Below, one piece after another: positions 4,867-6,272 of a stretch of 17,535 nt of DNA. Both the position numbers and the translations under genes were made by a program. The stretch comes from a virus, in the UHGV virus genome UHGV-0122804. One strand, given 5' to 3'. Position 1 is the stretch's first letter, and each line of letters starts with the position of its first letter. The notes below the pieces were generated by a model. The model did no database searches, was not told where the DNA came from, and saw only the letters and a program-made list of their open reading frames with translations.

Positions 4867-5153
4867 GCGATTTAACTTCTTGGGAATGGTGGTTGGCCAC
4901 CTATTTCTTAGCGGCCGGAGTCGCATTCGCCTTTTACGTAGGTCAGTTAGTCGTAAAACTGTTGCTGATTAAATTTGCTAGTCATAAACGTATCGATGAT
5001 GGTCTGTGGCGTCTTGGCACCCTGGTGGAAACTCGCTACGGGCAACTTAAGGAGAACGAAACCATTACTATCCAAGCGAAACGATTCACTGCCACCATCA
5101 CAAGAACACCTAGTCGTAGAGTGGCCTTGATCAAAAAAGTCACAACCGAATAA
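4863..5153 (+). CDS. hypothetical protein with N-terminal transmembrane helix (96 aa)
   Basis: Hydrophobic segment WEWWLATYFLAAGVAFAFYVGQLVV. Coupled to the upstream small ORF. Confidence 0.5.
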   Translation: MSDLTSWEWWLATYFLAAGVAFAFYVGQLVVKLLLIKFASHKRIDDGLWRLGTLVETRYGQLKENETITIQAKRFTATITRTPSRRVALIKKVTTE

Positions 5154-5162
5154 AAATACAAT

Positions 5163-5200
5163 GATAAGTATTTACTTACTTATCTTTTGTGTATAAGATG
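5163..5200 (+). promoter_or_regulatory. Motif A copy 2: GATAAGTA-N6-TACTTATC then TTTTGTG and TATAAG, at the head of the 760-bp non-coding region
   Basis: gataagta (5163-5170) and tacttatc (5177-5184) are exact reverse complements. -10-like TATAAG at 5192-5197. Confidence 0.5.
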
Positions 5201-5548
5201 ACTTTGTTTTCGTTGAGACGCGACTGTTTGAACTTAAATACAAGTGCAAACGAAGAAGTCTATCTGGCAGTAGCCTAATAAGCCAAACACCAGCGAGGTC
5301 AGTTTCCAGCCTCGTTACCGAAATGGGACACACTGAGCGAGTGTGATTGCAAAACGCAGGTAGGGCATCTGGTTAACCAGTGCCCTTACCAATGAGGTAA
5401 CAGAATGGGCGGTTGGGTTTTATGTCCAACACATCCCGGCTCCCAAAGGCCCGACCGTCTATCCTGTTACGTCATTTCTGTTACTTATGTCGTTTAGTTT
5501 TGGGTTAAAAATGGCGACGTAACCCGGCTGGTTAGGTGAGCCAGCACG

Positions 5549-5641
5549 CAACGTTGAGACCACTGGTTTTTGCATCACAGGGGCAGAACCGGCAGACATG
5601 TAGGGCCAAGTACATTAATCCGTTCAGTGGTCTCAACGTTG
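5549..5641 (+). other. Perfect 17-bp inverted repeat enclosing a 59-nt loop
   Basis: caacgttgagaccactg (5549-5565) is the exact reverse complement of cagtggtctcaacgttg (5625-5641). Confidence 0.6.
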
Positions 5642-5705
5642 TGGTCACGGATTCATTATCCTTCTGGTTATAGCCATTGTTGTCACTGCCCCGTGGCCAC
5701 AACGA

Positions 5706-5733
5706 TTAAATGATTCCATACATCTAATTAGAT
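5706..5733 (+). repeat. Motif B copy 2 (TTAAATGATTCCATACATCTAATTAGAT) in non-coding DNA
   Basis: Shares about 26 nt with copy 1. Followed by the perfect palindrome atctaattagat (5722-5733). Would encode only MIPYI-stop. Confidence 0.7.
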
Positions 5734-5913
5734 CTGAATGAAAACTCTCCTCAACTCTCGGAGAATATTTGAAGATCTTGGCTTGTAAGCGTTTGGTGAA
5801 CACGTAAAGCACAAGTGGCAGGAAACGGTAGGACTGCTGCGAACGACACCGGTGAATCGGCGATACAGCCCCACAAGTCCGTGAATCGACAGAGGCTGAC
5901 GGTGTCAACCTTA

Positions 5914-5988
5914 GATGGTGTAGCTCAGTGGTAGAGCGGTTGACTGTTAATCAACTGGTCGGTGGTTCGAATCCACCCACCATCGCCA
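5914..5988 (+). tRNA. tRNA-Asn (anticodon GUU), 3' CCA encoded
   Basis: Hand-folded cloverleaf: acceptor GATGGTG/CACCATC, D stem GCTC/GAGC, anticodon stem GTTGA/TCAAC with loop CTGTTAA, T stem GGTGG/CCACC with loop TTCGAAT, discriminator G then CCA. Differs from E. coli tRNA-Asn as I recall it. Confidence 0.93.
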
Positions 5989-5989
5989 A

Positions 5990-6072
5990 CACAGCGCTGA
6001 ACGGTTTGGAGTTCGCCACCACCATCCGAACGGAAAGACTCCGCAAATGTCGCCAGACCGTTCAGCGCTGTG
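5990..6072 (+). ncRNA. Candidate structured RNA element directly 3' of the tRNA (20-bp stem with one G-U pair)
   Basis: 5990-6009 pairs with 6053-6072: 19 Watson-Crick pairs plus one T-G that is a wobble only in the + strand transcript. Loop contains an inner gttcg/cgaac hairpin. Confidence 0.4.
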
Positions 6073-6136
6073 ATAGACACGTTCTTAACCATTGCTTCTT
6101 AGCATCGTAGCAACACTTTTTTCAGCGCAAATAATT

Positions 6137-6160
6137 AAAGGGGCTTCGGCCCCTTTTGTA
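6137..6160. terminator. Bidirectional rho-independent terminator
   Basis: GGGGC-TTCG-GCCCC stem-loop, with TTTT downstream on + and an A-run upstream that gives TTTAATTATT on the - strand. Sits between the tRNA unit (+) and the 3' end of the - strand gene. Confidence 0.8.
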
Positions 6161-6272
6161 AGATTAGCAAAAAAGAACAATATTACTTGAAAAAAAAGAC
6201 AAAGTTAGTCAATTTCATTTAATAACACCAATGTCATAATCGAGGACCTTGCTCCTCTGCTTAATTAAACCA

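Follow-up and report, generated by a model that had tools for sequence, protein, structure and literature searches.

Immediately downstream of the only tRNA gene in a 17,535-nt stretch of a viral genome (UHGV-0122804; the whole stretch is here called the window) lies a long inverted repeat. An earlier note, made from the letters and a list of open reading frames, had proposed that this repeat is selected as RNA and might be a tRNA-linked small RNA, a precursor-processing platform or a regulatory element. The questions raised by this locus are whether the repeat is maintained as RNA or as DNA, whether it belongs to a wider group of elements, and what such a hairpin would do between a tRNA and the terminator of its operon.

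Structure and surroundings of the hairpin in the window

The two arms were shown to pair at all 20 positions, by 19 Watson-Crick pairs and one T6006·G6056 wobble, with 43 nt between them, and because a single base (A5989) parts the stem from the CCA end of the tRNA, the stem starts at the second nucleotide after CCA (Table 1). The earlier description of the site was accurate in these respects; it was also right about the inner GTTCG/CGAAC hairpin of the loop, which was recovered in the + strand MFE fold at 6011-6015/6027-6031, and about the terminator, which was placed at about 65 nt and was found 64 nt 3' of the stem. The + strand RNA of the hairpin was predicted to fold with an MFE of -43.8 kcal/mol (z = -7.2), and none of 200 shuffles was as stable. 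Exactly one inverted repeat of this kind (20 nt, at most one non-Watson-Crick pair, loop of 3-120 nt) was present in the 17.5-kb window, and none of 60 first-order shuffles of the window held any comparable 20-nt inverted repeat.

The wobble is a G·U pair in the + strand RNA and an A·C pair in the - strand RNA, from which selection on the + strand RNA had been argued. Since the - strand RNA of the hairpin folds even more stably overall (-46.6 kcal/mol), the lone wobble is by itself weak evidence for a strand. The proposed + strand selection itself found support in the comparative data given below, and it is on these alignments that the strand argument would rest.

Table 1. Features in and around the hairpin locus of the window.
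Feature	Position	Strand	Basis
Short-loop hairpin GGTAGGGCATCTGG-TTAA-CCAGTGCCCTTACC with family-like stem	5359-5390	+	Inverted repeat; weak match
Second family member, CGCAACGTTGAGACCACTGG / TCAGTGGTCTCAACGTTGTG, 270 nt upstream of the tRNA	5547-5643	+	Inverted repeat, model R1, fold
Tail helix of the upstream module, CGTTGTGGTCACGG / CCGTGGCCACAACG	5637-5704	+	Inverted-repeat search
tRNA-Asn (anticodon GTT), encoded CCA at 5986-5988	5914-5988	+	ARAGORN; Rfam tRNA, 77.5 bits
Single unpaired A between CCA and stem	5989	+	Sequence, tRNA call
5' arm of the 20-bp stem (20 nt), CACAGCGCTGAACGGTTTGG, with U6006 of the wobble	5990-6009	+	Repeat, fold, model R1 end to end
Variable 5' half of the loop with inner hairpin GTTCG/CGAAC	6010-6034	+	Alignment, MFE folds
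Loop motif AAGACTCCGC, invariant in 22 of 22 distinct variants	6035-6044	+	Alignment
3' arm of the stem (20 nt), CCAGACCGTTCAGCGCTGTG, with G6056 of the wobble	6053-6072	+	Repeat, comparative pairing
3' trailer, conserved in sequence	6073-6136	+	Alignment of relatives
Intrinsic terminator AAAGGGGC-TTCG-GCCCCTTT and T-run	6137-6160	+	Sequence, conserved in relatives

The hairpin is contained in a tRNA-to-terminator unit set by the orientation of the tRNA and by the downstream intrinsic terminator, and it is situated between the CCA of the last tRNA and the operon terminator, which is the location of a 3'ETS-type RNA. ARAGORN and Rfam identified tRNA-Asn as the sole tRNA of the array in the window, and a sigma-70 promoter scan of 5100-6400 found no promoter. 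The terminator has a GGGGC-TTCG-GCCCC core and T-run at 6140-6157, with a tail of 4 U in the window and 5-6 T in relatives. A terminator scan reported the - strand reading of the same element, which is probably bidirectional because a 529-aa ORF (6273-7862) converges on it; this ORF gave no matches in Pfam and PADLOC searches. The trailer of the window was found to be without 7 nt (ACGGCAG) that are present in its closest relatives. An 8-nt segment of the 3' arm (6061-6068, TTCAGCGC) recurs in the trailer at 6121-6128.

Rfam searches at gathering and permissive thresholds left the hairpin uncovered in the window, in P1, in Sasha and in six SSU5-like loci, and a search over 5600-6300 at E-values up to 10 detected no STnc100, no ribozyme and nothing on the trailer. 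The segment from the CCA to the end of the terminator (5986-6160) had no RNA feature annotated over it in RefSeq records or complete E. coli genomes.

Occurrence in phage-plasmids

This region of the window was shown to match Klebsiella phage-plasmids of the SSU5-like type, among them a K. pneumoniae plasmid with 96% identity to the window (NZ_CP047636); phage SSU5, Salmonella Typhi pHCM2 and Escherichia phage Cyrano are more distant matches. Segment 5986-6160 was found in 634 PLSDB plasmids from Klebsiella, Escherichia, Enterobacter, Salmonella, Citrobacter, and Cronobacter, always at a single place per record, and 442 of these matches spanned at least 80% of the segment. Among 5,426 complete E. 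coli genomes, 245 contained the segment, all on plasmids and in single copy, and none had it on the chromosome. With one copy per plasmid and none on E. coli chromosomes, the segment is therefore no dispersed repeat.

Comparative analysis of the type T hairpin

The hairpin of the window defines a comparative class, here called type T, for which 120 loci representing 22 distinct variants were collected from annotated records and from a scan of IMG/VR. Because that scan used the loop motif and the upper part of the 3' arm as its pattern, it imposed nothing on the 5' arm or the lower stem. The hairpin was located 1-2 nt past the CCA of the final tRNA (Asn, Ser, or His) in 88 of the 99 arrays listed, with a spacer of 1 nt after Asn and His and of 1 or 2 nt after Ser. 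The remaining 11 consisted of nine arrays with a type-A hairpin and tail in between, in which the type-T hairpin stands 159 nt past tRNA-Asn, one array with a 5'-truncated tRNA (L118) and one at a contig end (L068). The make-up of the arrays was very variable (Asn; Asn-Ser; Asn-Thr-Ser; Asn-Tyr-Thr-Ser), and the 'His' tRNA proved to be the Asn gene with a GTT-to-GTG anticodon change. The type-T hairpin was found to be the final structured element before the terminator.

Within the stem, 14 pairs were constant across the 22 variants. Double compensatory changes were detected at pair 8 (C-G in 8 variants, U-A in 11) and at pair 12 (A-U in 12, G-C in 10), pair 3 was either C-G or U·G, and the wobble at pair 17 was U·G in 20 variants and U-A in two, on two different backgrounds, and never A·C. 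In total 98.6% of the stem cells were paired, with a covariation score above those of all 500 shuffles and all slid controls. These changes represent few evolutionary events but real compensations. Compensatory changes in homologous loci, the check that the earlier note had suggested, were seen at pairs 8 and 12, the wobble became U-A twice, and the alignments support the view that selection acts on the + strand RNA and not on a palindrome in the DNA. A common variant (the L008 group) has a C·A at pair 8, which is a wobble only on the - strand.

Divergence of the two arms without compensation, which had been named as evidence against selection on the RNA, was observed in a single lineage of Citrobacter/Cronobacter type (L011, L014, and L024), and only where the hairpin is not next to a tRNA. 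In this lineage the tRNA-Ser normally preceding the hairpin is deleted, which leaves the hairpin off any CCA, and the stem carries 2-3 uncompensated mismatches, all in its basal half; these three loci account for all but one of the six unpaired stem cells in the type-T data set. The apical half and the loop motif are intact where the basal stem decays. This stem decay on loss of tRNA contact is a natural experiment, albeit only a suggestive one because it concerns a single clade. In phage SSU5, the 3' arm, the loop motif and the trailer are all lost, and the element is therefore dispensable for lytic growth.

The 5' half of the loop was found to be swapped among four unrelated sequences (that of the window and three others), while the 10-nt motif AAGACUCCGC (6035-6044) was unchanged in all 22 variants. 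Most MFE folds of type-T variants contained a small loop hairpin ending at or in this invariant motif, and two variants (L009 and L079) had no clear one. The trailer of about 65 nt is conserved across the phage-plasmids of Klebsiella, Escherichia, Enterobacter, Salmonella, Citrobacter, and Cronobacter up to the terminator, by sequence and not by covariation. Coding on the - strand was considered and rejected, as the hairpin lengths of 74, 78, 79, 80, 81, and 83 nt differ by non-multiples of three and the loop is replaced wholesale.

A wider family of CACAAC…GUUGUG hairpins

Long spacers in the same tRNA arrays (Asn-Ser, 147 nt; Thr-Ser, 195-493 nt) were found to contain one to three modules, each composed of a 79-95-nt hairpin of the same design and a multi-hairpin tail of 55-125 nt. 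These hairpins start -2 to +1 nt from the CCA of the preceding internal tRNA, and tRNAs lying 2-8 nt from the next tRNA have no hairpin in between. The spacer hairpins open with CA(C/U)A(A/G)(C/U), close with (A/G)(U/C)UGUG and have about 20 pairs, and most of them contain a U·G pair in an AUUGG/CCAGU context four pairs below the loop, at the same relative site as T6006·G6056. The empty Thr-Ser site of Cyrano reads CCA-ACACAA-TT-GGAG, which is the product expected if the CACAAC repeats that bound a module had recombined.

Further modules were detected by BLAST with the spacer in phage P1, Sashavirus phages, rV5-like phages and a P22-like phage. In P1, they follow tRNA-Thr in the C1-controlled ban operon, and the record annotates the - strand ORFs plp and upl over them. 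A pattern scan of IMG/VR yielded at least 120 stretches, mostly on contigs of 30-55 kb, with at least 77 distinct hairpins. Among the matches listed, 8 of 110 occurrences follow a tRNA, 54 a T-run and 48 other sequence, and nearly all of them are then followed by a tail starting with GTGAAT…; the hairpin has the same orientation as the flanking ORFs in 83 of 108 listed cases and the opposite one in 13. In one E. coli prophage, the hairpin was located immediately 3' of a terminator T-run, in the interval that separates the genes for the Q antiterminator and the holin.

Pairwise comparison of the arms of 34 diverse members, none of them of type T, showed 94.6% of the cells to be paired and 10 of 19 pairs to have changes on both sides (59 cells); none of 500 shuffles reached this covariation and no slid control came close. 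The signature pair was U·G in 21 members, U-A in 8 and C-G in 5, and never A·C. The family stems are also irregular, with a conserved mismatch at position 10 (T·T) and a bulged A at position 7. The 120 distinct family stems had a median of 20 pairs (range 17-23). They contained 241 G·U against 69 A·C combinations, 39 of the latter at the conserved position 7, counts which are not independent as the stems are related in sequence. One alignment (A3) mixes reads of both strands of the same hairpins, and its pair counts were left out of the strand arguments. A canonical tRNA T-arm was found in the loop of 8 of the 120 members, for example GGGTTCGAATCCC in P1. An origin of the hairpins from tRNAs was nevertheless rejected, since only these eight loops carry a T-arm, the window member has none and the feature is no general property.

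The tails link the family to known prophage sRNAs. Modules like STnc100 (RF02076) and PasD were found to be the immediate downstream neighbours of family hairpins in the SSU5-like and P1 arrays, and the tails in lambdoid late leaders open with the same GTGAAT… motif. Compared with the Rfam STnc100 model, which has a threshold of 47 bits, the array tails scored 41.3 bits (L015, E 2.6e-6) and 33.4 bits (P1). The model excludes the hairpin itself except for a poorly aligned 5' edge, and the trailer of the window did not match it. Because hairpin and sRNA are neighbours in these arrays, a family hairpin and an STnc100/PasD-type sRNA seem to form one recurring module. STnc100 and PasD are both prophage sRNAs, PasD having been detected near Q by Hfq RIL-seq and northern blot (bioRxiv 10.64898/2026.05.13.724894). 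The family lies at junctions between RNA units, being placed after a tRNA 3' end or a tR' terminator and before STnc100/PasD-like sRNA modules.

A description of the family was not found in the literature, including searches with sequence strings, nor in Rfam 15 or RefSeq annotation, and a literature search for transcript data on SSU5 and pHCM2 found nothing relevant. The family, which is common to SSU5-like, P1-like and lambdoid elements, therefore appears to be undescribed.

Family members in the window

A covariance model (R1) was built from the 34 hairpins of P1, lambdoid and SSU5 spacers, and thus contained no type-T sequence; it was run with filters off, which was needed as a search with default filters misses type-T hairpins. 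The hairpin at 5990-6072 scored 35.6 bits on the + strand (E about 2e-7) over model positions 1-85 of 85 and 28.3 bits on the - strand, and U6006·G6056 aligned to columns 18-94 of the model, that is, to the U·G pair that is the signature of the family. From this match the hairpin of the window is best classified as a member of the CACAAC…GUUGUG family. Its stem is uninterrupted and is without the bulged A7 and the T·T mismatch at position 10; these features are frequent and not universal in the family, because type A members are also without the bulge.

The upstream hairpin at 5547-5643 scored somewhat higher (38.8 bits on the + strand, E about 4e-8; 35.8 bits on the - strand), and the next best match in the window reached 15 bits. 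It has a perfect core of 17 of 17 pairs according to the inverted-repeat search, and counterparts of it were found in SSU5, pHCM2, Cyrano, and P1. Its tail helix (14 bp, 5637-5650/5691-5704) shares 7 nt with the hairpin's 3' arm. For the short-loop hairpin at 5359-5390, membership is not established, as R1 gives it only 7 bits.

Proposed function as a processing hairpin

The stem length is conserved while the loop is replaced, and the asymmetries in orientation follow the direction of transcription. We tentatively favor, at somewhat less than even probability, the reading that the hairpin is a cis-acting RNA element for punctuation or processing at the joint between the tRNA and the terminal trailer. 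It would be co-transcribed with tRNA-Asn on the + strand and form its 20-bp duplex one base after CCA, and the stem would be cut by a double-strand-specific endonuclease, for which host RNase III is the candidate because the roughly two turns of dsRNA that it requires equal the stem length that the family has retained. For the E. coli enzyme this requirement is about 20-22 bp, approximately two helical turns, and the stem of the window, with 20 pairs and -43.8 kcal/mol in a transcribed region, is of this size. RNase III is also known to process polycistronic phage RNAs, including the T7 early mRNAs, lambda sib, DicF and the T4 tRNA cluster. The hairpin is a candidate substrate of the RNase III type, and free replacement of the loop is as expected if the duplex is the part that is read. 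After such a cut, tRNA-Asn would keep a short 3' extension to be trimmed by exonucleases, and the best-conserved part of the hairpin, namely the apical 10 bp and the loop with AAGACUCCGC, would be set free, as would a trailer-plus-terminator RNA of about 85 nt. Alternatively within the same reading, cleavage might take place in the 0-2-nt spacer, and the hairpin would then shield the downstream RNA against RNase E attack at its 5' end; a 5'-terminal stem with few unpaired nucleotides at most protects RNA from this enzyme.

Formation of tRNA 3' ends is not the general purpose of the family, since 102 of the 110 members listed do not adjoin a tRNA. The invariant 10-nt motif and the conserved sequence of the trailer exceed what a cleavage site needs and point to an added, possibly trans-acting, function. 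The precursor-processing platform and the tRNA-linked small RNA of the earlier note are both viable and not mutually exclusive. Some observations run against the processing reading, namely the missing A7 bulge and T·T mismatch in the window hairpin, the C·A pair of the L008 group and the loss in SSU5.

Several known systems were compared with the hairpin. The RNase III hairpins of phages (T7 R1.1, lambda sib, the DicF precursor, and the T4 tRNA cluster) resemble it in having a duplex of about two turns between RNA units and a free loop sequence, and several family members share their internal stem irregularity. There is, however, no sequence relation to these sites, cleavage here is predicted only, and neither the CACAAC/GUUGUG termini, the fixed U·G pair nor the type-T loop motif is a known RNase III determinant. 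The homologue in P1 lies in the ban operon, the annotation of which also lists a dicF-like region. The 3'ETS-leuZ of the E. coli glyW-cysT-leuZ operon is likewise a non-tRNA RNA between the last CCA and the terminator that is conserved beyond the needs of termination, and the hairpin and trailer of the window are candidates for a similar release by processing. Unlike them, 3'ETS-leuZ is short and chromosomal, has no 20-bp hairpin and has demonstrated sponge targets, and it shares no sequence similarity or Rfam match with them. Species 1 and 2 of the T4 tRNA cluster are stable non-tRNA RNAs with tRNA-like 3' ends. They are similar as structured RNAs co-transcribed with phage tRNAs and cut from the same precursor, whereas the hairpin has no tRNA-like 3' end; this comparison was made by description only. 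YrlA, a bacterial Y RNA-like molecule made of a long stem and a tRNA-like domain, is comparable to the family in its long terminal stem and variable cap domain, a domain that contains a T-arm in the eight family members mentioned above, but the window member has no T-arm and no Ro-binding bulged helix, and no rsr gene was seen. Membership in the YrlA/Y-RNA group was rejected, as the model misses the hairpins and its only match was over real P1 tRNAs.

Alternative explanations

Alternatively, the hairpin by itself, or a unit of about 170 nt that also includes the trailer and terminator, could be a stable RNA acting in trans, as a 3'ETS-type sRNA, a sponge or a protein-binding RNA. Its interacting surface would then be the AAGACUCCGC loop or the trailer, and the stem would be a scaffold only. 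We consider this possible, if on the unlikely side. The loop motif that stays invariant in 22 variants while other loop sequence is swapped, the trailer kept by sequence and not by covariation, and the persistence of the apical half and motif where the basal stem decays all argue for it. So do the U-rich stretch and GC-rich terminator, which are like an Hfq-type 3' module, and the sister modules of the same arrays, which come near the threshold of STnc100, a prophage sRNA like the Hfq-linked PasD. On the other hand, a target search of the window with the motif and two conserved trailer segments found only the segments themselves and no complementary site, the trailer has no match to STnc100 or another Rfam family at E-values up to 10, the terminator tail of the window is only 4 U long, and a scaffold role leaves the fixed distance of 1-2 nt from CCA unexplained. 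The processing and trans-acting readings can both be true together. A related reading, which we judge improbable, combines the fixed length of about 20 bp, the conserved ends, the U·G pair and the bulged A into a protein-recognized RNA scaffold that displays exchangeable apical cargo, such as the mimics of tRNA T-arms in some members and the invariant AAGACUCCGC in the window hairpin. The family would in that case provide temperate phages with a modular system of decoy or effector RNAs carried in tRNA and late-leader transcripts, directed for example against host RNA-targeting defences or tuning translation, and processing of the basal stem might set off refolding of the adjacent sRNA.

An element acting as DNA, whether a MITE, a site (attC-like or other) at which tRNA/sRNA cassettes are shuffled by recombination, or a hairpin for ssDNA replication, is very unlikely. 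The CACA…TGTG termini and the 20-bp terminal inverted repeats are MITE-like, but the single copy in each of 634 plasmids and its absence from the chromosomes of 5,426 E. coli genomes are not those of a MITE. Similarly, the AAC…GTT ends, the irregularity after the first 6 bp and the variable apex recall integron attC sites, and a tyrosine recombinase gene is located 4 kb away (9927-11030); type T, however, has CACAGC…GCTGTG ends with neither AAC/GTT triplets nor an extrahelical base, and the recombinase matches generic phage-integrase models only, with no match to an integron-integrase model. The gain and loss of modules in the tRNA arrays, where CACAAC flanks a module on either side and the empty Cyrano site has one ACACAA, is also explained by recombination between short direct repeats. 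Moreover, the arms co-vary instead of holding a protein-binding sequence, and neither the asymmetry of G·U against A·C nor the co-orientation with transcription is expected for duplex DNA. A signal in the nascent RNA, that is, a pause, a modulator of termination efficiency or a put-like antitermination element working with the downstream terminator, seems highly doubtful; it might operate through an alternative helix between the 5' arm and the trailer copy of TTCAGCGC. Family members stand directly after tR' in Q-dependent late leaders, a terminator follows in the window, and the family repeatedly shows three-strand arrangements that give one arm a choice of two partners. Yet the alternative helix has 8 bp against the 20 bp of the stem and shows no covariation, the downstream copy being constant while the stem changes, and internal family members have no terminator behind them. 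HDV-like theta ribozymes adjoin phage tRNAs and begin at the tRNA 3' end (PMC10879173), and a self-cleaving ribozyme freeing the 3' end of the tRNA would fit the site, 1 nt past that end. Such a ribozyme is extremely unlikely here, as the hairpin is a plain 20-bp helix with a variable loop and no nested double-pseudoknot architecture, its sole conserved unpaired segment is 10 nt long, and no ribozyme family matched at E-values up to 10.

Significance and annotation of the region

Phages encode tRNAs as tools of counter-defence and codon supply, and to our knowledge the cutting of phage tRNA arrays into working molecules is largely unstudied outside T4. The family offers a concrete candidate for a punctuation signal of such arrays that is open to test. 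It is carried by three temperate enterobacterial groups, SSU5-like phage-plasmids including S. Typhi pHCM2, P1, and lambdoid or Stx-type prophages, and it adjoins the abundant prophage sRNAs STnc100 and PasD. If it is a processing site, it would explain the ends of these sRNAs and of the last tRNA. As a sort of element, a structured hairpin that serves to process or insulate RNAs of a phage operon, and that may give rise to a 3'ETS-type RNA, is familiar; as a family, it appears to be undescribed and is surprisingly widespread.

These results also correct the annotation of such regions, in that opposite-strand ORFs have been called (P1) or are callable (the window) across structured RNAs. Positions 5154-6160 of the window form a tract of about 1 kb in which structured non-coding RNA genes surround tRNA-Asn. 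The only ORF listed in this interval (5645-5908, - strand) is probably spurious because it overlaps the RNA structures, and the ORFs annotated over the homologous regions, CYRAN_40 of Cyrano and plp and upl of P1, were likewise found to overlap tRNAs or hairpins.

Possible Alternative Pairing and Variants in SSU5-Like Relatives

The main hairpin is the 20-bp stem following tRNA-Asn. The sequence TTCAGCGC of its 3′ arm (6061–6068) recurs just 5′ of the terminator, at 6121–6128, so that the 5′ arm could pair with either copy. The copy at 6121–6128 is unchanged while the stem co-varies, with compatibility kept via G·U pairs. An analogous three-strand arrangement was found in other members of the hairpin family, through CACAAC repeats. 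The trailer of the window is 7 nt shorter at 6078/6079, just 3′ of the main hairpin, where its closest relatives (e.g., L005, 96% identical) have an additional ACGGCAG.

Phage SSU5, the type phage, retains nothing of the main hairpin beyond its 5′ arm and a portion of its loop (L001, 1577–1620); in place of the 3′ arm, the invariant 10-nt loop motif, the trailer and the terminator, unrelated sequence precedes gene SSU5_049. The “tRNA-His(GTG)” of an SSU5-like IMG/VR contig (L105, 1525–1599) is the tRNA-Asn gene with its anticodon altered at one position, from GTT to GTG: a phage-plasmid tRNA whose anticodon was switched by a point mutation.

Members in Phage P1 and a Lambdoid Prophage

In P1 (L121, NC_005856; 1101–1670), three family hairpins with tails resembling the prophage sRNA STnc100 lie beneath the annotated minus-strand ORFs plp and upl, in the same orientation as the tRNAs and the ban operon, and the two ORFs are possibly artefacts of annotation. 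A canonical T-arm, GGGTTCGAATCCC, is present in the loop of the first P1 hairpin. In a lambdoid prophage of E. coli S10 (L237, 3450–4045), the leader between the Q antiterminator and holin genes is filled by a family hairpin, which begins directly after a terminator T-run, and an STnc100-like tail; the RefSeq annotation shows no feature in this interval.

Regions Flanking the tRNA Unit

The approximately 760 nt located 5′ of tRNA-Asn (5154–5913) contain no credible ORF and are crowded with long hairpins, the most downstream of which is similar to the loop of one spacer hairpin type found in relatives. An 87-aa ORF on the minus strand (5645–5908) overlaps with the hairpins and is probably not a real gene.

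The 13-mer AATGATTCCATAC is present in five copies in the window against 0.49 expected, a number reached in 0 of 200 shuffles. All copies apparently lie outside the longer ORFs, as judged by comparing positions by eye with the ORF list only. One copy is located 190 nt 5′ of tRNA-Asn; two others form a palindromic pair immediately 5′ of the tyrosine recombinase gene. The copies resemble repressor operators, comparable to the C1 operator that precedes the ban/tRNA operon of P1.

Long hairpins upstream of tRNA-Asn and copies of the repeated 13-mer in the window
Feature	Position	Strand
Long hairpin	5359–5390	
Long hairpin	about 5400–5468	
Long hairpin	5547–5643	
Long hairpin	5637–5704	
Long hairpin	5844–5906	
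13-mer	4713	
13-mer	5709	
13-mer	9796	
13-mer	9816	−
13-mer	15846	−

On the other side of the unit, a 529-aa ORF (6273–7862, minus strand), without a match in Pfam or PADLOC, converges on the terminator in a segment of low GC content (0.36–0.39). Other genes occupy this position in relatives, encoding an AbiH-family protein, a DNA invertase and other hypothetical proteins, and the site appears to be a hotspot of variable accessory or defence genes adjoining the tRNA unit.
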